From: Candidatus Bathyarchaeota archaeon
Lineage (GTDB): Archaea; Thermoproteota; Bathyarchaeia; Bathyarchaeales; Bathycorpusculaceae
Direction: 5' to 3'
DNA: 64,000 nucleotides
NCBI GenBank assembly: GCA_963806535.1
Contig: CAWDYC010000004.1
Span: 1-64,000, forward strand
Part shown: piece by piece, positions 1 to 16,132 of the stretch
Layout: each line of letters opens with the position of its first letter
How positions within the stretch are numbered: position 1 is the first letter of the stretch
The notes under the pieces: model-generated
Databases searched by the model: none
Seen by the model: only the letters and a program-made list of their open reading frames with translations
Told to the model about the DNA's origin: nothing
Position numbers and translations under genes: made by a program

Positions 1-58
1 TTTACTGTATACAATAAGGACAAACAGGCTTGGACTTAACTTCTTTCAGTGAATACTC

Positions 59-121
59 GGAACCGGGAACAGGAGCTTAACTCAAGAGCAAGGGGAGATG
101 TCACAACCAATATCCCTTTTT
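59..121. repeat. Degenerate tRNA-end-like sequence plus conserved arm (GGAGATGTCAC...CCCTTTTT), same family as the arms at 36449, 37204, 41414 and 52033
   Basis: GGGGAGATGTCACAACCAATATCCCTTTTT aligns with GTGGAGATGTCACCAGCAATTCCCCTTTTTT (41445-41475) with the same 29-nt spacing. Confidence 0.55.
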
Positions 122-339
122 CTTTTTCCTAGAACAAGGCAAGAAGAGAAGTGCCCATAAGAACGGCGGTAATTGCTGAAATATAGCCCAGTTTTGTTTT
201 TTCATAAAGGTTGTCTTCGCAAACACTTTATTCGCGGCGTCGCCTTCTTTCTTCCCAATCAAAATCAAGAGACAAATTATCGCAGAGCTAACAAGAACAG
301 TGTGTAGCGTATTTTGAAGCTAGGCACACATTAAAATGG

Positions 340-910
340 TTACGCCGAACTCTTGGTGCACCTACGTCCGTTCGCCTCTTCCAGCGTTTCCTTTGCCGCT
401 TTGTTAATTTCCTCGGCAAGTTCTTTTTCGGAAATACCCTCATTGTAGATTTCACTGATTTCTATGTATTTGTCGAAAGCAATATCCATCCCATTAAATG
501 GAAGGGTGTTTACCCTTAACGAGTCGATATTGTTTCCTTCAACCACCGCTTCCTTCCAAGCGTTTCTCCGAAAAAGATGCATGAATCAGACCAAAACGGG
601 TATTTCATGAATAATGGCGTATTCGATTTCTCTGGCGGTTCCGCTATCCCATATCAAGCCCGGTATACGCTACAACTATATCCGATTTTTTCACGAATTC
701 TAAACACGTTTCCCTAATCAAGCCAGCTTTCCCATAGAGTAGGGGGCGGGACGGTGACTTCTTAATGGCATTTGACACAAGTTTTGTCGGATAGTGGACA
801 GCCCAATGAAAGTCTTTTTTCAGTATCTTTATTGTTTTTAAATCAAAATGCCTCAAGGTTGATACGAAACACCTTGCACCAGCCCAGTAAATTGTAGTTT
901 TCTTGTTCAT
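340..910 (-). CDS. Nucleoside 2-deoxyribosyltransferase (NDT/Rcl-like) family protein, frameshifted; may extend to a stop at 228
   Basis: N-terminal IYWAG and SDIVVA; after a frameshift near 650 it reads DSGTAREIEYAIIHEIPV, the NDT DxGTxxE signature. Confidence 0.7.
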
Positions 911-1126
911 GAGTGGATTTTCACTATCATTTAAATGAGCTGCAAAAAAGTTAAATCTTCCGAAATGTCGCTTTTAAAAAGCCTGTTCAGAAGCTGTTCT
1001 GATGCTATCTCCTATTAAAGAATACAATCGAGCTAATATCAGACCGATTTAAGATATTACTGTTTGATTGAAATTGGCTCTTAGCCAAAGCCATTTATAA
1101 AACTTACGGCTCATTGACTTGGAGAG

Positions 1127-3659
1127 TTGGAGAGCACAATCGTGGGGAATCAAATAGTGAAGAAATCAATACTGGAGAAAGTCAAAGCCAATGGCGGAGA
1201 ATATATCGTAATCAAACGCATGGAAAAAGAAGACTCAGATGAAGGGACAGTCTACAAAGCGGTCTATCGCGACACGATACCATGCGCCCTTAAAGAAATA
1301 AAAGTTGATAAACTAGAACGAGATCAAATTGTGGGGCCATTAATAAGCGAAGTCAAGTTGCTTTCTTTACTTAAACACACAAATCTTGTTAGAATTATTG
1401 ACTATGGGGACGGGCTACCGCAAAGGAAAAAAGAAGTTTCAGAAGAGGCTCCTAAAGATGAACCAATTTGTCACAATATTCTTACTGAAAGCATCCCCTA
1501 TATAGCAATGGATTATGTAGATGGCTGCACCTTAGACAAGGCGATAGAAAACTCAGATTTTTGTAACCCTGTTTTCTTGGAGAATCTATCCAAATGGCTG
1601 CAACAGATTGCCAAAGTCATTTCGTATCTTCATGAACGGGGCATTTTACATATGGACATAAAACCTGATAACGTACTGATTGAATGCACGACAAATAACG
1701 CTGTACTCATTGATCTGGGCGATGCAATAATAGCGGACATTAACCGTTTCAGCAAGTACTTTCGAGCCGAGAGCGTGGACCGACAGCTGATGACAAAATA
1801 CGCGTATTTTTCGATCCAAAATATGCCTGGAAGGAAATCCTGCCCATGAGAGGCGGTTTCTTCAAGCGCTCCGAAATTAGTGAGCGTCTATTTCCTAGGA
1901 AAGATATGGAATCGTTTGGGAAGTTAGTTCGAGAAATTCACACCAAAATTAAGCTTTGGGATATTAAAACCCCGAAAATAATTAATTCTGAAATCGTACG
2001 AGGCTTAGATGAAATAGCACGTAGACTTGAATCTGGTCATTATGTGAATGATTCGAAAGAAGAAGGTGATGTCGCAGCATATTTTGCTTGTAAAGATATA
2101 AGTAACATAAACCCTCGGAATCTTCAACCCTTCGACATCCCCGAACTTTCAGACTTTGGTGATGGTCTATTTGTCCAGCTTGCGGAAGATTCCATTTGGG
2201 TCCCAAAGAGACTTGCAGTAATTATTGACCATCCTTTCTTCCAACGTTTAAGAAATATTTCGCAACTCGATTATGTGCCATTAATCTATCCAGATGGTCA
2301 GCACAACAGGTTTTCTCATTCTTGTCACACATATTCTTTGGTTAAACGAGCGCTACTTAGTCTCCTTTCAGATGTTACTTTCAGGCTCAGTGTCAACGTT
2401 AGCGACATTCAAGGCGCATTATTATACGCACTTCTACATGATATTGGACATTACCCGCTTTCTCATATGTTTGAAGACATAAGAGATTTTGGAGGGAGTC
2501 TTACTGACCGGATAGTAAGTGACGAAGACTTGTTTAAGCCAATGATAGAAGGTGGCGACAGCAGCCCTGTGGGCGAAGTCATAAGTGCAAAGCTCGCTCA
2601 ACGTGAAGGTCTTAAATCGATAAAAGATTTAATCATTGAGCTCTATGGCACGCAAACCCTTGATGCTATGTACAGCATTTGGACAAGTGTTATGGAAAAT
2701 CAAGCGAAGAAATCAATTCATTGGGTTCTTGCAGGATTGATGTCTTCACCTATTGACGTTGACAAGATATCCTACTTAAAAGAAGATAGCATCATGACCG
2801 GAGTTGATTATGGAAGAGGTATCGACATACAGGGGTATTTGTACAATTTGAAGATGCCCCCGTTAGACTTAGATCCTCGAAAAACAACTCACCCTGTATT
2901 AGCGTTGAGGGATAAGGGCTACGCTGCTGCCGAGTCAATTATTATGGCAAGGTATTGGATGCTGTTCTAAGAGTATATTGGCATCATAAGAACCGTATGT
3001 GTATGAGCGGTTTCAAATTTGTCCTACATTCTCTTTCTCTGGCAAAGCTCCTCTTAAAATTCAGCGAGTATTTTAGCCAGGTCTTTTGGGGGACAAAAGA
3101 AACTGGGGCTCAGTACATAATTAATCGATACTTGAAGTTGTTCTTATGTCAATCCTCTTGAACGTATTATGGAAGGTGAACGTCCGAAATACAAGAGATT
3201 CTATGTTGTTTCGAGCAACAAAGACGAAGTCATTTTCAACTATTTGCTCAGATTAATGAATCATTACTTGTCGAAATAATCAGAAACAAAATTGCAGACT
3301 TCATTAACGCGAAAGGAACCCAACTTCAGGGTAGGCAAAGACTATTTGGACTCAGTTGACGATGTTGGTGGGAAGCTCTCAATTAAACGAGGGTGTTTTA
3401 CAATCGACATTCCCCGTAATGATAGAGACCGCTTAAGCCTAGAACAATATTCGTAATCTTAATGAAGGAAGTGGTGATGTTGAAACTTCTCCGTTCCTCG
3501 CCCCTGTTCAGTAAACTGGGCGATGAAGCCCTCATTCAAATAAAGAAATGTCGCATATTTGTCCATCCCAAATTGTTTGAGTTTTTCGAGGAAAACTGTT
3601 TGGTAGATGAAATACGTGAAATAGTGAAGTCTCAATTAAGATCTTCAGCCAAACCGTAG
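1127..3659 (+). CDS. Ser/Thr protein kinase fused to a SAMHD1-like HD phosphohydrolase (several frameshifts)
   Basis: Kinase motifs CALKE, SEVKLL, HMDIKPDN, DLG; one extra T in the T-run near 1810 joins the ORFs via DPKYAWKE...KDMESFG; HD motifs FQRLRNISQL, HNRFSHS, LLHDIGHYPLSH, DVDKISYL. Confidence 0.75.
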
Positions 3660-3774
3660 AGAGAGCGCTTAAAGCTTTTCCGAAAACGCAAATAGGATTT
3701 GTTAAAAGCTGAGGATAGGAATTGTACCTTTGTCAGTTGCAGACGTGTCCCTCAAAACTCTCCTTTTTCTATGT

Positions 3775-4001
3775 CTATGAGCTTGCAGAACCAGGATTTG
3801 TATTTAACTTCTCTTTCTGATAATAGTTACAGTTTAGACATTTCCATTCTACTATCGTATAGTTTTGTGCAGTTTGAGGAATACCAAGTCAATTCTAGCA
3901 GTTCCAGGCTCTGCTTTCGTCATTTCTGCAGACGATGATAAAATCCATCTTGTTCCTATAGTAACCATTGCTACTTTTCTACATACCGGGCATTCTTTCA
4001 T
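3775..4001 (-). CDS. Small Zn-ribbon protein (CxxC...CxxC), frameshifted
   Basis: Reads MKECPVCRK...WKCLNCNYYQKE when two indels are allowed. Confidence 0.45.
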
Positions 4002-4071
4002 GTTTAATGCTCTTACGTGGCTATTAAAAAAGTTTTAAACACCACCACATAATAATTCTAATTGGTATCAA

Positions 4072-4809
4072 ATGACAAGCGTTGTAACTTTACTGTGTCC
4101 AGGAGGGATAGTTGTTGCAGCAGATATGCGTCAAATCGAGTTTTACGATTACTGGCTTGAAATAGACCCAATAGTGACAGATGGAATAAAGAAGTTTACA
4201 GAGTGAAGAGAAAGGCAAATATTGCTATTGCATGCTGGGACTAGCAGAAATTTCCATTACTGCTGCTCAAAAAACAGGCATAATGAAATTTTTGGAAGAT
4301 TTTGATACAGATAGCCTAGTAGCCGGGGATACGGTAGATACAATAGCTGAGAAACTAAAAACAGAGTTACAGAGTCTAACGATACCCATTACTAGACCAA
4401 TGGGGTGCCATGTTGTTGGCTTCATGGATGAAGGTTTGTCAAGAAAACCTAAGCTGAGACACGTCTTCCATGAAGAATGGAATGATGCTGGAGAATTTAC
4501 CAATGAAGATAGCCATTCAGAGTATTATCCCCATATGGTAACAAAACTATCTTAAGAATAACAAAAGACTATCCAGTGCTTTTTAATGGAGACTCATTGG
4601 TTGCAAATTTGTTGTTCAATTATGCTAGGAAAATTGAGCCGTATTATGATATTGTCCCTCACAAGCTTACATTGAATGATTGCGAAAAACTGGCTACTAT
4701 GATTATTGGAACATCAACTCAGAGACTTGATTACTTTTTCGATTTGAGGAAACTCACAAGAATGCGAAGAGCAGTTGGTGGTGGAATAAGCTCAGCTGAA
4801 ATTACCTAG
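4072..4809 (+). CDS. Proteasome-beta/HslV-like Ntn-hydrolase, frameshifted
   Basis: MTSVVTLLCPGGIVVAAD puts Thr1 and Asp17 exactly; KK at the Lys33-like position, IAIACWG, C-terminal VGGGI. Confidence 0.65.
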
Positions 4810-5140
4810 AGACAATTTTGAATGGAAACGTAGTAAGTGAGCGCCGGAAAAGAAGGGGACAATAAGCTGTGGATTCATCCAAAGAGCTCGGGATGGAATT
4901 TGATGCATAACAGCACCTTAGGCTATTGCCAAACCATTTTGTTATACCGATAATCAATTTTTAGGCAATTTTGTTAAATGGATTAGTATTTTAGATGTTT
5001 AAAAGGCTGAAGTTTTTTGGGGTAAGGTGATTGGGGGTTTGCCCCTTTCCCTTGAACTACAATTCTTTCCATCTTTCTCAAGGGCTTGTTTTGCATATAA
5101 GGGATATTTCGATTCTCGTAATATATCCTGTTGTACACAA

Positions 5141-5416
5141 CTACAGTAACTGCAAAAGCTGTTCTGCTTGGCTTTTGCTTAGTCCTTTTACAAACAGCTG
5201 CTTCTGCCTTGAGGTGGCGCCTGAGGCAAGCTCAACCTTAACATGCAAAAGTTTGGTAAATTCTTTCAAAATTTCCTTGTTTACTTTGCCCTTCACTGGT
5301 TCCTCGGTTGAGTGGACAACGATTTCGTCGCCGTCAAGCTCAATTTTGAATTTGGGAGAGTTGGGTTTAACAAAAATTGTGATGATTATGCCGTCTTTGG
5401 TTTCGCTGATGCTCAT
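5141..5416 (-). CDS. DUF167 (YggU/UPF0235) protein
   Basis: VKPNS, EPVKGKVN, SGATSRQK motifs; start overlaps the topIB stop. Confidence 0.9.
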   Translation of the reverse strand: MSISETKDGIIITIFVKPNSPKFKIELDGDEIVVHSTEEPVKGKVNKEILKEFTKLLHVKVELASGATSRQKQLFVKGLSKSQAEQLLQLL

Positions 5417-7086
5417 GCAGTTATGCACTCGGCTGCCTGTGCTTTTCCGCTTTGCAGTGCCCAGCTGAACTTGTTGCGCAAGGTTTTGGGATAGAATTTT
5501 TCGATGTCAAACTTTACTTTTTTAGCCCATTTCACGTAAGCTGTCGGGTCAATGTAGGATTTCAGTGATGTGCCCAAGATTGTATTCTTTGGTTAGCTTT
5601 GTTAGTTCCAAGTCAAGCTTAGCCCGCTTTATTCGAGTTTCTAAGTGATTCGGTTTTTTTGCCAGCCGCCTTCTTTCACAACAAGCTGTTGCTCAAGCGA
5701 TTTGATGTTGGCTTCTTTCTTCTCTAAGCGTTGGTCAAAGGTCGGCGGAACTTTACGTTTGTGATTTGCAACTTCAGCCACCTTGAAATTGGCCATTTTT
5801 GCAGCGTAAACCTTGCAGTAGTCTGGGTCTTCTTTTGTTATTCCGCTTTTCTCTAGTTCTTCTCTGACGGTTTTTGTGCATCTCCACGTGCGGAAAGACC
5901 TTGGCGGTTAATTTGGGCATTTTTTCAGATAGAAAACGGGCGACCATCTTGGAGTCAACGCCTTCAAAAAGGTATTCTTTGCTTGTTTTGGCGTAGTACT
6001 GTAGGTTTCTTATGACTTCGGGTGGTGCTGGGATGTCTTTTACCCATCTGACGCTGTCTTTGCCGAGAAAGTCAAAGTGGATAATATTGCCTTCTATCTT
6101 AATATGCTCAGCTCTGAGCGTAATAGCGCCTACAGTGTCGGCTTCATCTGGGTCTTTTTCGTCGCCGACCCTCATGTTTGGCACCAAAATAAGCCACGCC
6201 ACAGTTGCAGTTTTTCGCCTTAAATCATCTTTATCATTAAGATTTCGGAGAATATGCTGTTCAATTGTTTTGATTTGTTTGCCTAATGTTTCAGCTTTAA
6301 AAAACTTTTCTTTCTCGCGATTTTGCTTGAGAAATGCTGTGTCGCTGAACCAGACGTATTTGATTTTGCCTGTTAGCTTGTCTTCCCATTTGGCAACATA
6401 CATTTTGTTCGGTTCCCAAACTATATCCTTCCAGTTTCCAGCTGGTCTTGGAACTAAGAGTTTGCCTTTTTCGTCTTTAGGTAAATTAAGAATAATGTCT
6501 GATTCACTTGGGCCATCTTTCCATTTACCACGTTGCGGATGATCTCCACGACCAGCAAAAAGGCATGATGGCTCGGATGTCCAGTTGGCAATCTCCAAGT
6601 TTTTGTCCATCAACATCTGCGTAGCCATATTTTTCTTTGAATTCTAGGCGTTTGACTTTGCGTTCTTCAGCCTGCTGTTTTTTCACTTCTTTGGTAAGAG
6701 CTTCTTTTTTGGCTTTTTCGCTTTCAATGAAGTTGCAGATTTGTGAGAAGTCAATTTCTTGGTTTGCTGGCTGGCTGCCGTTGTTTGGAGTTGCTGGCGG
6801 ATGCTCAATATTGTTTAGGTAATTTGAAGTAAAACTGTTAAGAAATGTGGCTGAAGGATTTTCATTTTTGATTTGTTCAGAAATTCTTTCATGAAATTCT
6901 TTTTGAAAAGCTTGGTCTGGCGGAGATACGGTTGATGAGGTTTTTTCTTACCCATGCAACCGCCATCTGCTCGCTTTTAGGCGTCAACTTTATTGTTTGA
7001 CCGTTAATTTTGATGTTGAAGCCTTTGTAATCGTAAACTGGAACAAATATGCCGTTATGTTTTAGACTTTTCATAACATGCTTCAT
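5413..7086 (-). CDS. topIB: DNA topoisomerase IB, eukaryote-like (frameshifted)
   Basis: LKHNG, FAGRGDHPQRGKWK, MRVGDEKD, DTVG, FDFLGKDSVRW, LTAKVF(R), catalytic GTSLKSYIDP. Confidence 0.93.
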
Positions 7087-7240
7087 AATTAAACCTCAAT
7101 TCCATGGCAAAGACTTTGATTCGTTTGTGTCTTGCCAATATTTGTTCGTACATGGTTTTTCTGCTTTTCGGTTTTAAATTTGCTATTTTCCATAACCTTG
7201 CTTCGAAGCTTAAAAAGATATGGCAGAAAAACGGCAAAGT

Positions 7241-7651
7241 TTACTCGAAAAACAGCTTTTTCTGCTTTTTTGAAGCCCGATCATTCTGTAGTTTCTTATA
7301 AACCGCCTCAACATCTTTCCGTTCAACGTAGCCTTTATGCGGTCGGAAACCACCTGAAAAACCGCCTGGAATATGCATGAGTTCATGAATTAATGTTCTT
7401 TCTTTGTCTTCAGGCGTCATTTTGTCAAAGATTTCTGAGATAACTTCAATGGTGTAGGATGCGGGCAGGTTTAGGACTCCTTGCCAAATTTTGCCTAAGC
7501 CGTGAATGCGGGCGATGGTGCGTCGGGCTTTGGAGCCTCTGCTTCTGACACAGAAAACAAATTGTGGCACAACATGGTAAAACTCGCATTCCTCTGCTAA
7601 CTGGTCCACTTGTTTTTTGATTTCTGGAGCCTCAAAATATTTAATCGGCAC
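7241..7651 (-). CDS. Putative metallopeptidase (HExxH)
   Basis: LIHELMHIP motif in an intact 136-aa ORF. Confidence 0.8.
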   Translation of the reverse strand: MPIKYFEAPEIKKQVDQLAEECEFYHVVPQFVFCVRSRGSKARRTIARIHGLGKIWQGVLNLPASYTIEVISEIFDKMTPEDKERTLIHELMHIPGGFSGGFRPHKGYVERKDVEAVYKKLQNDRASKKQKKLFFE

Positions 7652-7699
7652 CCTTTCTCTCTCCCTCAGGGCATTCTATATGAATGTTCCATTTAAAAG

Positions 7700-10324
7700 C
7701 TAAGTGCTTCTTCGCCATATTTTCATAAGTTCAATCCAGAAAGTTGAAACCAACGCTGCAACAATTACTATTGCCCAATCTGTCGGAGTTAAGCTTGTTA
7801 TTTTAAGCGAGCCAGCTATGCCCGCCACGTTTGTTGCCAACAGCAATGTAGCTATTACGATTAGACCCCAAAGCACCATAACCTTGTTTGAAAGAACACC
7901 CAGCTTTGAGAGAGGTTCTTTTTCGGAGCGGAAGTTTAAAGCTAATAGAATGTGGCCTATCATCCATGTGGCGAAAGCTACTGTCTGTGCATGTTGAATG
8001 GCAGCTTGAGGTTGGGTTTTGATACCATGTGAACAGGTATGTTGCTGTTACCGCAGCAAATAAACTAAGCGAACCTAAAACTAAGCTTGTAAGCATACTT
8101 TTGTTCAGGAACTTCTCTTTCGGATCGTTGGGCGGCTTGTTCATGATACCTGCTTCTGCTGGTTCAGCTACAAAGGTGGCTGACGCTGCTAAATCCATGA
8201 ATAACTCAAGCACAATGATTTGAATCGGTGCAAAGGGCAGCGGAATACCCAGTATGATTGGAACAAGGAAAATCGAAACTAAAGCAACTTTGCAGGCGAG
8301 GTAGTAACGGACGCCTTTGCGCAGGTTGCTGTAGAGTTTGCGTCCTTCTTTAACTGCAGTTTCTATGGTGGCAAAATTGTCGTCGGTTAGAATCATGTCG
8401 GCTGTTTCTTTTGCAACGTCGGTTCCGCGGATGCCCATTGCGATGCCAATGTGGGCTTCTTTGAGGGCTGGAGCATCATTTATTCCATCGCCTGTGACAG
8501 CTACGATTTCGCCGTTTTCTTTTAAGAGGTGAACTAACCGCAGTTTATCTTCAGGAGTTACCCGTGCAAAGACAAAGGTGTTTTTTAATGCTTTCTTGAG
8601 GTCTTCATCGGACATTTTTGAGATTTCGTATGCCAGTTAACACGTTGGCGCTGTTTATTCCAACTTGAGAAGCAATGGCTTTGGCGGTTTCCGGGTGGTC
8701 TCCAGTAATCATTACGACTTTTATGCCTGCTTCTTGGCAGGTTTGGATGGCTGCTTTTACTTCTTTTCTTGGCGGGTCAATGAAACCTAAAATGCCGACG
8801 AAGGTAATGTCGCTTTCAAGGTTCTCTCTATCTACTGAATCAGCTTGAAGTCTGTGGTAGCCGAATCCGAGTAGGCGTTCACCAGACTGAGCCATTTGCT
8901 CCACAGACTTTGTTGATTTCATTTCTGCTAGCGACATCGAGCGGGGCTTCTTCACCTTTTAGAAGGATTTTTGTTGAATTAGCCAAGATTCTTTCTGGTG
9001 CACCGCTTGTTAAAACAACTCTTGGAGTTGCCATATTGGTAAATATATGAAGCGAGTTTTCGTTTAACATCAAAGCTTAATTCGTCTTTTAGAATCCAAC
9101 CTTCCGTTGCTTTCTGAAGCATTGATTCCATCTTGTTTGAGCCGTTCAAGAATTGCTTGAGCCATCGGATTGCCCAGAACCATGCTGCTTGATGTGTTTG
9201 CGACGGCGTCGCTGGCTAAAAATGCGGTTCTTAATGCTGCTTTCTCATTTTCCTTAAAATCTTGGCTTCTGTGAATTGCGCCGTCAAAGTAGAGGTGTTC
9301 AAGCCGCATTTTGTTTTCTGTTATCGTGCCTGTTTTATCTGTGGCTATGACTGTGACGTTTCCAAGAGCTTCGGCTGCACGTAACCGTTTCACTATAGCG
9401 CCTTTTTTGGATAAGGCATAACTGCCTACGCCCAAGAACCATGGTGATTATGATTGGTAGTTCTTCAGGGATGACGACGAAAGCCAACGATAACCCGTAA
9501 AGTACGGCTTCGGCTGGATTTGGCTGAACCCCTCTGATGTAGCTTAAAACTGGTATGAGGATGCTGAAGAAAAGTGCAATCCATACTAAGGTTTTGGAGA
9601 GCTGCTTCATCGCCAACTGCAAGGTTGTTTTTGGTTCTTTTGCCGCTTTAGTTATTCCTGCAACTCGTCCAAGCTCACTGTTTATTCCCGTTGACAGTGA
9701 TGAGTGCTTTGGCTCTTCCTCGAGTTATGACGGTTCCGGCGAAGAGCATGTTTGTTTGATCTGTGATTCTGGTTTCAGTCGCCAAAATTGCGTGGCGTCT
9801 TTAGCTACTGGATAGGATTCTCCAGTTAATGAGGACTCATCAACTTCTAAACCAAAAGCTTCAAGGAGTCTCGCATCTGCAGGAACTCTTTGACCTGTCT
9901 TTAAAACTAAAATGTCGCCTGGAACAACAAGGGCTGTCTCAACCTCTTGGAGTTGCCCATTTCTAAGCACCATCGTTGTCGGAGGCGCCAGCTGTTTTAA
10001 CGATGCAATTGAACGTTTAGCCCTGTACTCATTCCATACTTCAGCCAAAACCAAAACGATTATTATCACAATTATGGTCAGAGCATCTGTTAAGCTACCT
10101 AAAATACTGTAAAGAACGCCTATAGCGATTAGCAGAAGAATCATTGGTTCCGTAATTTCTTCGCGCAGGATGCCGAGGAAGCGGATTTCCCTTTGCTGCA
10201 CAAGAACATTTCTTCCGTACTTGTCAAGGCGCTATGCTGCCTCTTGATCCGTTAAGCCCTTCTCAGGATTAACGCCTAATTGCCGAATCAGCTCTTCTGT
10301 GTCTTGTGAATGCCACTGGCTCAT
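7700..10324 (-). CDS. Cation-transporting P-type ATPase (type II-like), frameshifted
   Basis: [36 protein letters not shown] motifs. Confidence 0.92.
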
Positions 10325-10652
10325 TGCAGCACCTAAAGTTGATAAGTTATTAAAGTTGCGAAGGAAATTTGACCTAAAAACGTTGCGTAACCAATCGCTA
10401 ACATTTTAGCCGCTGCCTTGATTTCCTATTTCACTTTTTATGTATTACCGTTCAAGCTTTTCTAAGCATGAAAACAACGATTAACCCAAAAAAGGCTACG
10501 ATTAGACGCCTAAATATTGTGCGCGAAATGAAATAGTCGAATTGTAAGCAATCGCCAAACAGCTTTTTAGCCTTTGCAACCCTTTTTTCTGTTATTATGC
10601 AAAACTTTATAACATCGCCAAACGTTTTGGTTTCTAAAAAGGTAGAATCAAG

Positions 10653-11576
10653 ATGAAATTCGGCACATACATGTTTGAAGCAAAGAAAGTTCCAGGCTTT
10701 GACTTTGACCTTTTCCGCGTTAAACCGGAAGTTGGAAGACGAATGCCACCGCAACCTGATATGTACAGCAACATCGCTATTTTCGGAGACAACGTTACAG
10801 CTCGCAATCATCCAGATTGGATTTCACAGTCAGATTTAGGTCCAGCATGGAGAACAAATGACAACTTTAACGTCCGATGGGACATTCTCTGCGCAACTCA
10901 ACCAGAACATCGCGCAGAACAACTAGATTACATGGAAGACGTAGCAAGAAAAAGCCCAGGTATCTGGCTAAACAGCATCCACTTCGCAGACCACGGACAC
11001 TGCATATGCCCACGTTGCAAAGCACTACACGAAAAAAGCGGCTTAAGCTGGTATGAATGGAGACGAAAAGAAATCACTGATTACATGGCGGCAACAAGCG
11101 AACGCGTACGTGACAGAGCAAAGAGTCAATTTGTCATCGGTGTACTTCCAGACCCAGTTACAAACTATGAACGCTTCGGCGTCAACTTCGACGACTTAGC
11201 ACCACTCACTGATGAATTCCTAGTTGTTATGTTCAGCAAGAACTATGCTACACCTTGGTATTGGGAAATGCTTACCCGCAACTTCAAGAAACTCTTCAAA
11301 GACGTAAAACTAAACATTGCACTCTACGTTATCGGGCCCGGCGACGATCCAAGAGAAACACCAACCCCAAGTGAACTCTTAACAGTTTCAGTTCGTATGG
11401 CAAGAGCAGGCGTAGACGGACTCCTATACTTAACAGACAAAGCTGTACAGATGGTAGAATTCCAGAAAGCAATGATAGCTCAGAAAGATACTCGCGAACG
11501 CCTAAAGAGCTACGGCGGCAAAGCAGGTCAAGAAGTTCTCGACTTAGTTACAAGTTGGGAAAAGATCGTAGAATAA
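10653..11576 (+). CDS. Putative glycoside-hydrolase-like TIM-barrel protein
   Basis: HPDW, CATQPE and HCICPRC pattern typical of GH-like barrels; intact 307-aa ORF. Confidence 0.5.
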   Translation: MKFGTYMFEAKKVPGFDFDLFRVKPEVGRRMPPQPDMYSNIAIFGDNVTARNHPDWISQSDLGPAWRTNDNFNVRWDILCATQPEHRAEQLDYMEDVARKSPGIWLNSIHFADHGHCICPRCKALHEKSGLSWYEWRRKEITDYMAATSERVRDRAKSQFVIGVLPDPVTNYERFGVNFDDLAPLTDEFLVVMFSKNYATPWYWEMLTRNFKKLFKDVKLNIALYVIGPGDDPRETPTPSELLTVSVRMARAGVDGLLYLTDKAVQMVEFQKAMIAQKDTRERLKSYGGKAGQEVLDLVTSWEKIVE

Positions 11577-11751
11577 GCCAAAAAAGATACATTGCACGCA
11601 TGAGTGGCTTAAAACCACCAGGCTGCCCTTTTTATTTAATTCTTTATTATGACGTTACAGTTTATTTCTTATTTTTGAAAATTTCAGATGACCTGAGAAG
11701 ACCTTGAACAAGCTAAAAATAAGAAAAATTGATTGAATCTCTCTAAATGTT

Positions 11752-12198
11752 CTAATGAATATAGTCCAACGTTTTATTTTGGCTTTCGTGGATTTCTTTC
11801 ATCGATTCATATTGAGCTTCAATTAGAATTTTTAGGGAATCAATGTTTGTTTTTATGCTCTCTAATTCGGCTGTTTTAAGGAGAATTCCTGATTTTGAAA
11901 GTTGATCGTTAATGTTGCCAACTGTGACTTCTAGCACTTTGACTTTAAACGCAAATATTTGAAGCATGTAGAGCAAACTTAGTTGGCTGTTTAAAGCTTC
12001 AAGTTGATCCAAGTAACGTGTTTTCTTGACGAATGCTTTGATTTTTTGTTCCTGCGAAGCTTCAGGTGACTGCAGGATTTGCTCATACAGAGCTGATTGT
12101 TTCCAGGTTGCTTCTTTTGTTTCATCTACTGTTTTCTGTATTCGTTTTGTAGTTTTATCTAACATATCTAATACTTCGTCCAAATGATTCTCCCTCAA
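11752..12198 (-). CDS. Hypothetical coiled-coil protein
   Basis: Intact 148-aa heptad-rich ORF. Confidence 0.65.
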   Translation of the reverse strand: MRENHLDEVLDMLDKTTKRIQKTVDETKEATWKQSALYEQILQSPEASQEQKIKAFVKKTRYLDQLEALNSQLSLLYMLQIFAFKVKVLEVTVGNINDQLSKSGILLKTAELESIKTNIDSLKILIEAQYESMKEIHESQNKTLDYIH

Positions 12199-12429
12199 AT
12201 TACCGGTAATTATTCATTCAAGAGACCATATCAACCATTACCATTATATATAATTTTAAACTGCAATTTTTCTCGGCTTTAGGCAGATTTAAATCTAAAT
12301 TATGGAAAAAGGCATACTCAATCTCACTTAGAACGAGTTTGTTGAAATGCAAACACATATTTTATGAAAAATTAAAAAAAGAAAAAATAAAAAAGAGTTA
12401 CTTCGAAGTTAAGATGTTAGCTTGTGAGC

Positions 12430-12570
12430 TTAATATCTTCGTGGTGGTCTTCGTTTGCTATAGCACTCACGGCAATAAACTGGCCTGGTACCGTCTGGCT
12501 TGAAAGGAACTTCACATTCTTTTCCGCAGTCGGCACATGTTGCCTTGTGCATCTCTTTTGGATATGACAT
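12430..12570 (-). CDS. CxxC-x17-CxxC zinc-finger protein, 46 aa (missing from the ORF track)
   Basis: MSYPKEMHKATCADCGKECEVPFKPDGTRPVYCRECYSKRRPPRRY*. Confidence 0.88.
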   Translation of the reverse strand: MSYPKEMHKATCADCGKECEVPFKPDGTRPVYCRECYSKRRPPRRY

Positions 12571-13069
12571 ACTGTTTTTCACTTCCTGTTTTATTACTTT
12601 GCAAATTGCTTTGCAGGCTTCTTTAATGTAGGAACTTACTCAAAAGCCTATCCGTTGACGAAAAAAGTTTGAATGGACTGGAAGCAAAAGAAAACAGATT
12701 TTAGAAATAATTTATGAAATAAAGGAAAGAATTTTCTTTCGATAAACTACTCTTTCAATTTAGGCAGCATTTTAGTTGCCCATTCAATTTTAGTTGAGTA
12801 GATTTCACGCAATTTTGGAGTGCTGCTGATTTCTTTAGGTTTTGCCATCATTTGTTTTTTGGCTCGAGTGATCTGCATGTTTCGTTTAGGCTGGCTTTTT
12901 CTTTTTGATTTATAACCTTCACGGTTCAAATTTAATCCCTGCATAAAAGTTTGATACCTAACATATAGAAGTTTGCCTTATTTTACAAAAAACACTTGCA
13001 AATTTGCAGAAATAATTAGCTCAACGTCAGTGAAAAACGACTGATCATTTTTGAGTTATTTCCTTTGGA

Positions 13070-13983
13070 TCAGCTTGTGGAGACCAGTTTTATTTGATAG
13101 AGGCTTGGCCAATCTTTTCCCGTAACGAACAATCTATTGTTGCTTTGGTCATATGCGATGCCGTTGAGGACAGCATTTGGATTTGCATTGTTTTCGCTTG
13201 GCAGTCCTGCAAGGTCTATCCAAGCTTTAACTTGTCCCGTTTGCGGATTAATTATGGCAATTGTGTTTGTTTGCCAAATGTTGGCGTAAACATCGCCGTT
13301 AATGTACTCTAACTCATTGATGTTAACTATGGTGGTGTTTCCGTCATGCACAGCAACTTGTCCTGTCCGCTGAAAGGTTGTCGGGTCTAAAAAGTAAAGG
13401 TTGTCTGTGCCGTCACTCATGATTAATTGTTTGCCATCAAAAGTTAACCCCCAACCCTCCGTTGTCATAAGAGAAATTTCCAAGCAGAGCAAAACGTGGT
13501 TTTATCATAAATGAAGCCTATATGCGATTGCCATGTTAACTGGATAATTGTGTTGTTAACTATTGTTATGCCTTCGCCGAAATATTGGCTGGGCAGTGTA
13601 ACCTCTTGCAGAACATTTCCTGTTGTTAAGTCTACTCGACGTAGCGATGAATGCGCCATTAATTCCAGTGCTCTCATAAAGAAAACCATCTGAATAAAAA
13701 AGTCCTTCTGTGAAGGCGTTTGTATCATGTGGGTAAGTGTTAATGATAGTGTAGGTGTAATGGGTGACTGTTGGTGGGTTGTTGGTGCAGTTGTTGATGT
13801 CGGCGTTGGAGTCAATTCAGGAGTGGGTGTTAAAGTTGGTTCAATCGAAGACGTCGCTGTTGGTGTTGGTGTCGGCGGAGGGTTGACTTGAGTATTACTG
13901 TTTTTTATAAAAACAAGTATTGAGCCGCTGAGAACAAGAATGGCTATTATGATTAGTGAGGCTATAGCCAACGATTTCTTCAT
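13070..13983 (-). CDS. Membrane-anchored glutaminyl-peptide cyclotransferase (type I QC), frameshifted
   Basis: N-terminal TM plus P/T linker; YFGEGIT, QLTWQ, EGWGLT, INELE, VLNGIAYD, TGKDWP motifs. Confidence 0.88.
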
Positions 13984-14130
13984 TGCATTCTCATTTAGCA
14001 GTTCTTGTTAATAGGCAAAACGGTAAACTCACCTTTTTGATCTCAAAAAATCAAAGAGTTAAGTGTTTTTCTTTGAACATTAGAAAGTCTTAAAACTACC
14101 CCTAAATATTTACTTACCGTGAACCGTTAA

Positions 14131-14892
14131 TTGGGTCTTGCTAGAATTAATGGCAATAGATTCCTCAATTGTAATTGCTGTAATTCTCATTCTCTTCATT
14201 TCCTCATGGATTTACCCTAACTGCAAGGCACAGAATAACACATCATTTAGTTCGGCAAGACCAATTTCTAATCCCCTCCCAATAATGGCGCAGTAAGCTT
14301 TGCAGTAAATGGCAGCTACTCCAAAGCAACATTTGAAAATGACAGTTGGACATTTGAAAATTTGAACATCAATGGTTCAACGCCTCTTCAAAATTTTTTG
14401 GTTTCTGCTCAAAATTCTAACGTTACCATCTTCTCATACTTTTCCTTCAACAATACGACAACAACTTTAAGATTGAGGTATGTGGTTGAAGGAAACGGCA
14501 AACAGATTTTCAATTTTGGTACAAGGTCACATTAATGGAGTTGATTGGACCATTGTCAAAACTGTCGACCGTAAAAACGTGTTTTTGACCCCTGGAACGG
14601 ATTACACTATATTTCGCCTAATGGAACAATAGTTGTAAATGGAGCAACAGGCAACTTCAGTATTGTCCGTTATAATTTTTATAATAATAATTTGTTTAAT
14701 TCGAATTTGCCCTTCTATGAGCAACATTCTGTAGCTATTGCAACTTCAGCTGTGGTGGCAATTGTTATTGTTTTGGCTACTTGTTATCGCTGTAAGAAAT
14801 AGAAAATCTATAGCGAAAAAAAACTTGTCAATGGCAGTTATTCGGCAATAAATGGTAAAAAATCAACATTAAAAGATAAGGAGAAAACCTAG
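14131..14892 (+). CDS. Secreted protein with C-terminal membrane anchor, frameshifted
   Basis: Signal peptide ending CKA-QNNTSF, N-x-S/T-rich body, hydrophobic C-terminus followed by basic residues. Confidence 0.5.
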
Positions 14893-16132
14893 ATGCAGTA
14901 CTCGAACCCAACTTGGCTAGTACTACTCATATTTTCAATAATAGTAGTTTTGGGCATTGTCCTTATCTATAAATTGTCTAAAGATAAAACAAGAAAAGTA
15001 AGCACATCTGAGACTTTTTATTCAAATAGTTGCTGTTGTTGCTGTATTCATGGGTCTTATATTGGTCCATTCAATACGCCCTTTATTCCAGCCTTTGGGT
15101 CCTTCACCACGGGATCATTTGCTTGGATCTAATTTCTTGGGAAATCAATTTCCAGACGGTCTTTCAGTTCCTATTTTAGCTTGTTACTATCCTAACGGAC
15201 GAACAGTTACGTGTGCAATTTGGCAGCTTCAAGCCTACATTTTTCCATTTTGGAATCATCCAGTAGGCTACAACGTTCTGTACTCTACCTCTGGGCTAGA
15301 AAAAATAGGTATTGTTATTGGCATGATTGCTGTGGGAGCAATTATTCTAGGGCGGTTTTTCTGCGGTTGGCTTTGTCCGTTTGGATTATATCTGGATGTG
15401 TTAACACGAATCCGTAAAGCATTACGACTCAAACATGTGCGCTTTTCCGCGAAGACAAATACAGCTCTTGGACAATCAAGGTATGTTATAATTGCAGTTT
15501 TTCTGATTCTCAGCGTTATTTTCGGTTCATATGCCATTTTTGGGGCTCAAATAGTTCCAGGAACAATAACTGGTGGGCCTCAAGGAACCGAAGCAGGTAT
15601 TGTAAGTAATATAAATGAGCCTTTTTGTCTGGTTTGCCCCGCGAGACCTCTTTGCCTCTTAGTCGAAGCCGCTATTGGCGCGATAAAATGGTCATATATC
15701 TCACAAATAGTCTATGGGCCATTTTGGATAACAGGTTTCTACGTTACATCCATAAACTTGGCTATCCTGATTGCAGTTTCAATTGTAGCTTTTGTTTATA
15801 GGCGGTTTTGGTGCAGAATCTGCCCTCTTGGCGCAATTACAGCGTTGTTTAGCAGCTTTACTCCGTTCAAACAAATTGCGTTAACACGCCTGACTAAGAA
15901 CCAAGAAAAATGTACTCGATGTGGAGTTTGCAAACGGGTTTGTCCGACTGAGGCCACGGATGTTTACGACAAGAAAGGCGGCGACGTAACTGAATCCAGA
16001 TGTATTCTTTGTGCACGTTGCGTTGAGTTATGTCCATATGAAGGCGCGTTAGAACTAAAGTTCGCTGGCAAAACAATGATGAAATCAAGAGACTGGTTAG
16101 AACAGCAAAAGGCCAGCGGATTAAATTTGTAA
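14893..16132 (+). CDS. NapH/MauN-type membrane polyferredoxin (4Fe-4S binding)
   Basis: GRFFCGWLCPFG, RFWCRICPLG and two CxxCxxCxxxCP motifs. Confidence 0.88.

Follow-up and report, generated by a model that had tools for sequence, protein, structure and literature searches.

The window analysed here is the first 64 kb of contig C4 from the genome of a Candidatus Bathyarchaeota archaeon (G000), and it carries, at 1127/1157-3659 (+), a gene of about 833 codons that forms a single reading unit once its frame breaks are joined. We read it as one gene for a Hanks-type protein kinase, a helical linker and a complete SAMHD1-type deoxynucleoside triphosphate (dNTP) triphosphohydrolase, the hydrolase being regulated by the kinase and likely antiviral, and the breaks being assembly errors. 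To this reading as a whole we give a probability of about 0.6. Judged by alignment with its homologues, this is one fused kinase-HD gene and the fusion is real. How dNTP-destroying enzymes are kept safe yet ready is a question for prokaryotic nucleotide-depletion immunity and for SAMHD1 alike; here a kinase and a SAMHD1-type enzyme share one polypeptide, with catalytic residues conserved, in at least 115 sequence clusters from many phyla. A full-length archaeal small-subunit (SSU) rRNA lies on the same contig, and the host is therefore an archaeon.

Calling of open reading frames (ORFs) divides the gene into 1127-1849 (240 aa, TTG start) and 1846-2970 (374 aa), which overlap by 4 nt, followed by the short ORFs 2955-3161, 3292-3456 and 3462-3659 in alternating frames. 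As a reference for residue numbers we used P0002, the nearest intact fused homologue found, a protein of 844 aa from the metagenome contig L102. A tblastn comparison of P0002 with the window was colinear over all seven pieces, which lie in three alternating frames, and ended on the same C-terminal residues. Identity to P0002 is 63.9% over 778 aligned residues, at 59-71% in six of the seven pieces and 41% in one piece of 22 residues. Pfam assigned 0 families to the five short 3' pieces, whose identity thus rests on the homologue alignment. Each frame switch was bracketed by conserved peptides of the homologues, giving the following features:

1095..1103 (+), candidate archaeal TATA box TTTATAAAA, seen by eye in the sequence about 25-55 nt 5' of the candidate starts
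1127, 1142 and 1157 (+), candidate starts of piece 1 (TTG, GTG and GTG, respectively)
1127..1777 (+), piece 1, frame 2: N-lobe of the kinase with its catalytic loop and DLG; 67% identical to P0002 residues 4-211
Key codons of piece 1 (+), by residue mapping: K 1292; E 1349; D/K/N 1655/1661/1670; D 1712; G 1718; SDEG loop at about 1232-1250
1778..1791 (+), frame break 1 (frame 2 to frame 1, a net loss of one base), flanked by the conserved peptides YFRAESV and DKIRVFFDP
1792..2964 (+), piece 2, frame 1: C-lobe of the kinase, the helical linker and the catalytic core of the HD domain; 64% identity to P0002 217-612
Key codons of piece 2 (+): subdomain-IX-like D 1903; R 2308; H 2317; HD 2437-2442; H 2449; H 2464; D/K 2761/2764; Y 2773; D 2785; R 2950
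2965..2969 (+), frame break 2, frame 1 to frame 0, between ARYWML and RVYWHH
2970..3131 (+), piece 3, frame 0: VYWHH..R motif and start of the C-terminal lobe (the HD_assoc_2 region in homologues); 59% identity to P0002 614-667, with Y616, W617, H618 and R622 retained
3132..3147 (+), frame break 3, frame 0 to frame 1, from conserved-peptide bracketing
3148..3252 (+), piece 4, frame 1: NPL...YKRF segment; 63% identity to P0002 673-707, with R684 and Y687 retained
3253..3263 (+), frame break 4, frame 1 to frame 0, bracketed likewise
3264..3332 (+), piece 5, frame 0: variable helix; 41% identity to P0002 714-735
3333..3345 (+), frame break 5, frame 0 to frame 1, bracketed likewise
3346..3441 (+), piece 6, frame 1: TIDIPR..RD segment; 71% identity, with D760 and P762 retained
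3442..3443 (+), frame break 6, frame 1 to frame 0, bracketed likewise
3444..3659 (+), piece 7, frame 0: C-terminal KKCRIF.HP segment; 60% identity to P0002 792-844, the same end residue, R810 retained
3657-3659 (+), stop codon of the kinase-HD gene, at the end of piece 7

Among the candidate starts, GTG 1157 is more likely than TTG 1127 because it aligns with Met1 of P0002. The element TTTATAAAA is one that we take to match the archaeal TATA consensus. An earlier note on this DNA had obtained a protein of roughly 840 aa by adding one base in a T-run near 1810. The size agrees with that of P0002, whereas a single base does not suffice, since five further breaks follow. Homology also moves the first break 20-30 nt upstream of the proposed site: DKIRVFF, in frame 1, is encoded before and across the T-run and is already conserved, so the break must lie 5' of the run.

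The fused architecture occurs in diverse archaea and bacteria. An exhaustive phmmer search over 1.84 billion representatives of 50%-identity clusters returned 325 proteins at E ≤ 1e-30, and among the best 150 of these, 115 carry both halves (median 821 aa), 34 the HD half only and 1 the kinase only. When the search was limited to longer proteins there were 114 matches, 94 of which have precomputed Pkinase plus HD and/or HD_assoc_2 annotations. The fused homologues span 700-1030 aa and are named in their sources merely as 'protein kinase' or 'HD superfamily phosphohydrolase'. Of 100 loci fetched from GTDB species genomes and relatives, 18 have the kinase and HD halves in one uninterrupted ORF. 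The archaeal hosts of these intact fusions are Thermoplasmata, Promethearchaeota and unclassified archaea, and the bacterial hosts Solirubrobacterales, Conexibacter, Acidimicrobiia, Acidobacteriota, Thermoanaerobaculia, Ignavibacteriales, Bacteroidota, Neomarinimicrobiota and Planctomycetaceae. With intact fused homologues this numerous, the earlier proposal of a single fused protein in an archaeon is borne out. In an Acidobacteriota metagenome-assembled genome (MAG), at L028 9788-12291, the kinase and HD halves occupy overlapping ORFs of different frames with a single frameshift between them, which is probably an assembly error too.

Closer to home the gene is accessory and patchy in its distribution. 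With the query used, a fused copy turned up in 4 of the 301 genomes of the host's own family, namely G000, G016, G156 and G270; the copies in the last three are of a distant type, 941-960 aa long and 27-32% identical. A separate HD gene of about 430-460 aa is present in 41/41 related genomes, including G000 itself (C3:448469). Thirteen loci on IMG/VR viral contigs (L125-L137) matched the HD part alone (query residues ≥ 339), with the kinase in 0/13. Six of these HD-only viral loci lie on contigs labelled giant-virus MAGs (GVMAG).

For the HD half, assignment to the SAMHD1/EF1143-type dNTP triphosphohydrolases, including the C-terminal lobe, is well supported by sequence comparison and a structural model. 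The second ORF has a Pfam HD match at E 1.5e-4 (22.5 bits, against a cut-off of 22), and the H...HD...D motif is present in the window as RFSHS, LLHDIGH and IDVDK and is invariant in the family. Across 33 fused homologues, the residues H393, H434, D435, H443, D545, K546, D553, R608, Y616, W617 and R622 are invariant, and all are found in the window. A phmmer search of the PDB gave BT4208 (2q14; 2.1e-17), C. elegans ZK177.8 (9.7e-14), EF1143 (7.4e-12) and human SAMHD1 (about 5e-12), and in the homologues HD_assoc_2 (PF19276) is matched at E 1e-7 to 1e-13. AlphaFold2 modelled P0002 confidently as a single body, with a predicted local distance difference test score (pLDDT) of 88.0 and a predicted template-modelling score (pTM) of 0.87. 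Foldseek matched the C-terminal ~500 residues of this model to EF1143 (4lrl), BT4208 (2q14), Aquifex 2hek and SAMHD1 at a target template-modelling score (TM) of 0.64-0.79, with E values of 1e-13 to 1e-10 for EF1143, BT4208 and SAMHD1. In the alignment with SAMHD1, the window's IIDHPFFQRLR stands against IIDTPQFQRLR of chain 4q7h, matching the equivalents of D137, Q142 and R145, which we take, by human numbering and with their roles as we understand them, to form the guanine-nucleotide allosteric site of SAMHD1. The equivalents of R164, H167, H206, D207, H210, H215, D311, K312 and Y315 are likewise conserved. The SAMHD1-like character that had been proposed for this half is thus upheld in both sequence and fold.

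The kinase half is predicted from its sequence to be catalytically competent. Window 1127-1846 matches Pkinase (PF00069) at E 1.5e-20 with 74.2 bits against a cut-off of 31.7, and the homologues score 66-79 bits. The match in ORF 1127-1849 covers profile positions 13-146 of 263, and the C-lobe is therefore missing from that ORF, in agreement with the earlier observation that it lacks subdomains VIII-IX. As that observation also had it, the next frame supplies what is missing: after break 1, frame 1 encodes the kinase C-lobe, with DKIRVFFDPKYAWKE and FPRKDMESFGKLVRE both alignable with homologues, and continues open into the HD domain up to 2967. Subdomains VIII-IX are represented in that frame by FFDPKYAWKE and KDMESFG, with the canonical APE absent. 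K46, E68, D171, K173, N176 and G192 are invariant in the alignment of the 33 fused homologues, conservation reaches at least 90% for D190 and the subdomain-IX-like D254, and the window has all eight. Its catalytic motifs read ALKEIK (K 1292), SEVKLL (E 1349), HMDIKPDN (1655-1672) and DLG (1712-1720), which we take to provide the β3 lysine, the αC glutamate, the D-x-K-x-x-N motif and the aspartate of D-F/L-G. The profile searches that the earlier note had called for therefore return both Pkinase and HD, and the full-length fused homologues it had asked after exist.

These features allow us to propose how the protein might work. The HD domain would hydrolyse dNTPs to deoxynucleosides and triphosphate; we propose this because metal-binding and catalytic residues and those of the SAMHD1 guanine-nucleotide allosteric site are all conserved. 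The attached kinase would set the activity of the HD domain by phosphorylation, either of itself, in cis or in trans within an oligomer, or on cue. Such a fusion may keep a potentially toxic nucleotide-depleting enzyme under control. The likeliest role would be nucleotide depletion against viruses or mobile elements, and in some lineages there may be coupling to an adjoining nucleoside-cleaving enzyme. Enzyme activity, the regulatory link from kinase to HD domain and the defence role are all predictions from sequence, and the last of these is plausible. The evidence from context is mixed: the spread is patchy and 7 of 15 homologue loci bear defence or mobility markers, against 0 PADLOC matches for the HD half and no recognisable defence neighbours in the window.

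A more specific version, which we put forward tentatively as one possibility, is a self-contained phospho-switch immune effector shared by archaea and bacteria. Here the kinase would sense infection or nucleotide imbalance and phosphorylate the fused dNTPase, leading to destruction of dNTPs, and an adjoining nucleoside 2-deoxyribosyltransferase (NDT)-like enzyme or nucleoside hydrolase, where present, would cleave the deoxynucleosides thus set free and so block their salvage by viruses. If this were true, the regulatory logic of kinases and SAMHD1 in animals would have a fused prokaryotic counterpart, and the acidic SDEG loop of the archaeal subclade to which the window gene belongs would be an autoinhibitory or specificity element.

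Several observations weigh against the reading of this gene as an intact, kinase-regulated antiviral dNTPase. The six frame breaks lie outside homopolymers and so are not of the commonest long-read error type. The Pfam score of the HD domain is marginal, and all 5027 models of PADLOC-DB 2.0, searched against window 1744-2967 at E ≤ 0.01, gave 0 families; we assume that this model set includes dGTPase models. Every NCBIfam match is far under its cut-off (36 against 460 bits for MAD6), and the acidic SDEG loop could impair ATP binding in its subclade. The window neighbours at 343-973 (-) and 4039-4806 (+) have no Pfam match, and the window gene was not seen to adjoin any restriction-modification (RM), CRISPR or toxin-antitoxin gene. 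Among the homologues, seven loci (L023, L024, L026, L027, L037, L041 and L102) show no defence marker. Finally, the context control is weak, being drawn mostly from related Planctomycetes and compared over 25 listed families.

That context was examined in 91 ORFs within 4.5 kb of the gene at 15 intact loci, leaving out L030, L033, L045, L054 and L028 (short contigs or a split gene) and the noisy window itself. Family tallies cover 25 listed families out of 103 matched at the homologue loci and 132 at 15 HD-only control loci. The most frequent Pfam families listed for neighbours are N6_Mtase (3), Nuc_deoxyrib_tr (3), Metallophos (2) and Phage_integrase (2). An RM, toxin-antitoxin, integrase or transposase marker occurs at 7 of the 15 homologue loci and at 0 among the 25 families listed for the controls, which are housekeeping families only; since the control loci come mostly from related Planctomycetes, this contrast is a hint only. 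Type I RM adjoins the gene in G156 (L108), and integrases lie near it in G270 (L109) and at L038. L025 has RES, L038 also Fic/DOC and Dcm, and L022 PIN and a DDE transposase; L031 has BRO-N and an HsdM fragment, and L029 a group II intron reverse transcriptase (outside the 7/15 count). The earlier suggestion of a PADLOC and neighbourhood analysis has accordingly been carried through with a divided outcome: generic matches to the kinase core and markers at about half of the homologue loci on one side, no match for the HD half and uninformative window neighbours on the other.

Two of the distant paralogues (941-960 aa) stand out by their surroundings:

L107 (G016:C5), 6567-15616, kinase-HD paralogue region
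L109 (G270:C8), 5713-12481, kinase-HD paralogue region

In both, an Eco57I/N6-type methyltransferase of about 570 aa lies directly 3' of the kinase-HD gene. A PPP-like metallophosphatase follows the methyltransferase in G270 and lies divergently 5' of the kinase-HD gene in G016, where there is also a mad3/Gabija-like ATPase (best PADLOC match mad3, partial and generic) and a CARF-nuclease-like ORF. A methylation-linked multi-gene defence module with a kinase/phosphatase pair is possible at these two loci. PADLOC mad2 matches among neighbours were rejected as evidence for MADS because the methyltransferase core of bare mad2 (PDLC04134) matches at 49 places in G000 and in 14/14 control genomes.

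Genes of nucleotide metabolism also recur beside the fusion, as follows:

L023, 12402-12875, NDT (PF05014), archaeon
L041, 12408-12941, NDT (PF05014), a second, distant archaeon
L108 (G156), 12333-12830, NDT (PF05014), a third, distant archaeon
L022, 6057-6992, IU_nuc_hydro, an inosine-uridine nucleoside hydrolase two genes 3' of the fusion in a Thermoplasmata MAG
L029, 12599-13075, the ribonucleotide reductase regulator NrdR, directly downstream (about 200 nt) in a Thermoanaerobaculia MAG
L050, 7038-7742, and L056, 8472-9146, NDT genes beside HD-only relatives in two Planctomycetes, found with a small local hidden Markov model (HMM)

These neighbours, together with one DCD (dCTP-deaminase-family) gene among the homologue loci, bear on a doubtful alternative, in which the fusion serves a housekeeping or physiological purpose and not an immune one, adjusting the dNTP pool to the cell cycle, starvation or DNA damage, and its kinase integrates a cellular signal as cyclin-dependent kinase (CDK) does for SAMHD1. 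Several homologue loci do look housekeeping and are free of defence or mobile markers, the HD half is without any PADLOC family, and a neighbour at L102 resembles isopentenyl phosphate kinase, by eye only. Against a housekeeping role, the related genomes all possess a separate HD gene already, and the fusion is confined to four genomes of the host's family. Roughly half of the homologue loci have a marker of RM, of toxin-antitoxin systems or of mobility (integrase or transposase). The window gene, moreover, sits in a stretch (1-5400) that has no counterpart at the flank of the topoisomerase IB gene (TopoIB) in G001 or G004; not being syntenic with either, this stretch is variable. At L102 we also observed an ORF of 407 aa (265-1485) 5' of the P0002 gene, with no Pfam or PADLOC match and no similarity to the window neighbours; the kinase-HD gene seems to travel on its own.

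A recently inactivated, genuine pseudogene, with all six indels real, would be a different explanation of the broken frames. In its favour, the six breaks fall within 2.5 kb, five of them inside 480 nt towards the 3' end, with no long homopolymer at any of the six. The damage extends beyond this gene, however. TopoIB (5416-7089, -), the sole copy in G000, is divided among three frames by at least 3 shifts, whereas it is one ORF of 550-563 aa in 6 of 8 same-genus genomes searched, the exceptions being G003, with an open frame of 450 aa, and G002, whose match has internal stops. The P-type ATPase gene (7703-10324, -) likewise has at least 3 frame shifts against an intact 867-aa ORF in G001. Both flanking genes, single-copy here and intact in relatives, are thus broken at a density similar to that of the kinase-HD gene, and C4 genes from about 10.6 kb onward occupy a single frame each. 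The first 10-kb bin of C4 has a long-ORF coverage of 0.38, the lowest on the contig (genome median 0.74, 5th percentile 0.45), and other contig ends dip likewise, to 0.28 on C3 and 0.27 on C10. The aligned pieces contain no internal stop, and they retain 24 of 25 invariant family residues (the exception being Ala to Gly) and 39/39 nearly invariant ones, 63 of 64 conserved positions in all.

Since TopoIB and the P-type ATPase are similarly broken, the contig end is low in long-ORF coverage and the conserved residues are kept, the six breaks are very probably erroneous indels in the consensus of the contig's first ~10 kb, which is poorly polished. In the organism itself the gene is probably undamaged, and we consider a pseudogene improbable. 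Apparent gene breakage in G000 would then be an assembly artefact spanning about the first 10 kb of C4. Programmed frameshifting and an alternative genetic code were rejected as candidate explanations, given that the six breaks run in both directions and adjoining genes are broken too.

The nature of the N-terminal domain could also be questioned, on the strength of its ATP-binding loop. The earlier note had pointed out that acidic EKEDSDEG replaces the Gly-rich loop; this sequence is indeed present, just before TVYKAV, and of GxGxxG the window (E-D-S-D-E-G-T-V) retains the last Gly and Val alone. Together with weak secondary Pfam matches to APH (7e-5), Kdo and RIO1, this might point to a small-molecule kinase (APH/choline-kinase-like) or pseudokinase scaffold in a nucleoside or nucleotide pathway, or to a ligand sensor without phosphotransfer. 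Pkinase is the best model by far, however, the K, E, D-x-K-x-x-N and D-x-G residues are invariant, and the subdomain-IX-like Asp, typical of protein kinases, is nearly so. Most fused homologues have a GGAGxV-like loop, and by a crude pattern it is G-rich in 71 of 115 representatives; the window and its nearest relatives have SDEG/TDEG there (7/115 by the same crude pattern), a form that, because it is kept in those nearest homologues, is a feature of the subclade and not a sign of decay. We regard a non-protein-kinase function as quite unlikely and retain the reading of a Hanks-type protein kinase.

A division into two adjoining genes, with a truncated kinase at 1127-1849 and a separate HD protein at 1846-2970, as ORF calling with its 4-nt overlap would have it, can be dismissed, since the kinase C-lobe is encoded 5' of the ATG of the second ORF and in its frame, and the two halves occur together in 18 uninterrupted ORFs elsewhere and in 115 of 150 representatives. 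Of the outcomes that the earlier note had named as fatal to its proposal, two separate genes and a decayed pseudogene are therefore not what we find: fused homologues are intact and the breaks look like assembly errors.

In the window itself, the immediate neighbours of the kinase-HD gene are the following:

647..973 (-), divergent upstream ORF fragment, candidate NDT-like, from BLASTP and Atlas feature matches
4039-4806 (+), gene spread over three frames, N-terminal TSVVTLLCPGGIVVAAD

The upstream fragment is possibly NDT-like by sequence similarity: BLASTP relates it to the confirmed NDT gene of L023 at E 0.006, and Atlas feature matches link it at 0.91 to PF05014/PF15891 clusters. Pfam gave it 0 families, a local HMM built from three NDT sequences did not match it, and a PF05014 profile search of G000 found a match on C3 alone, under the cut-off, without recovering this ORF. 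The N-terminal TSVVTLLCPGGIVVAAD of the downstream gene is one that we take to resemble Ntn-hydrolase/proteasome-beta-like proteins; Pfam gave no match there.

Comparison with known systems places the two halves separately. Human SAMHD1, C. elegans ZK177.8 and Rhizophagus SAMHD1 share the same HD core and C-terminal lobe, both in sequence (about 5e-12) and in fold (target TM about 0.65), with a structural identity between the P0002 model and SAMHD1 of 17-19% only. SAMHD1 carries a SAM domain at its N-terminus, and separate kinases phosphorylate it in trans, whereas the window family has its kinase in cis and no SAM domain. Phospho-regulation of SAMHD1 by kinases is described in excerpts of 10.1101/399063, and CDK and T592 are named for this regulation in excerpts of PMC8319325. 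The best structure and sequence matches for residues ~340-844 are EF1143 of E. faecalis (2o6i/3irh/4lrl), BT4208 (2q14) and Aquifex O67745 (2hek), which, unlike the window protein, lack a kinase and stand alone at about 370-480 aa.

For the kinase half, the best PADLOC and NCBIfam matches are MAD6 of MADS, PD-T4-6, MkoA of Mokosh and PglW of BREX, all to the kinase core only. The PADLOC matches (mad6 2.5e-25, PD-T4-6 3.6e-20, MkoA) are partial, generic kinase matches, and a full-length MAD6 is not present, the match covering positions 65-198 of 659 in the mad6 profile. The methyltransferase, ATPase and nuclease partners of MAD6 are absent beside the window gene, whereas the G016 and G270 paralogues adjoin their Eco57I-like methyltransferase and metallophosphatase.

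Closer parallels in concept come from nucleotide-depletion immunity. Dgt-type enzymes presumably belong to a different HD subfamily from the HD half of the window gene, and the PADLOC models give that half no match at E ≤ 0.01. The kinase domain of the defensive dCTP deaminase is, we assume, not Hanks-type. The concept is nonetheless the same in defensive dGTPases as presented in portions of Tal et al. and PMC13519002, where HD dNTPases serve antiviral defence by depleting nucleotides and are often fused to domains for sensing or signalling. Fusion partners given in the 2026 dGTPase fusion survey, as far as its main text goes, are SAM, NLR, TIR, CARD, Death and SIR2, and the word 'kinase' appears there 0 times, supplements apart (PMC13519002). 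In the literature searched there was no description of a Hanks-kinase/SAMHD1-like HD fusion, though the supplementary domain tables of PMC13519002 and Tal et al. could list such fusions. According to excerpts of 10.1101/2021.04.26.441389, the defensive dCTP deaminase depends on the kinase domain fused to its N-terminus, both domains being required for defence; it likewise joins an N-terminal kinase-type domain to a C-terminal nucleotide-depleting enzyme, with a deaminase as effector in place of an HD hydrolase. In Clover, as described in excerpts of PMC12265719, the dGTPase CloA is toxic without its regulator, the nucleotidyltransferase CloB, and is released on infection; CloA is octameric and Dgt-like, and its regulator is a separate enzyme making p3diT and not a fused kinase. 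Beside these systems, the family described here would add a kinase-gated class to the known dNTPase fusions (SAM, TIR, SIR2, NLR).

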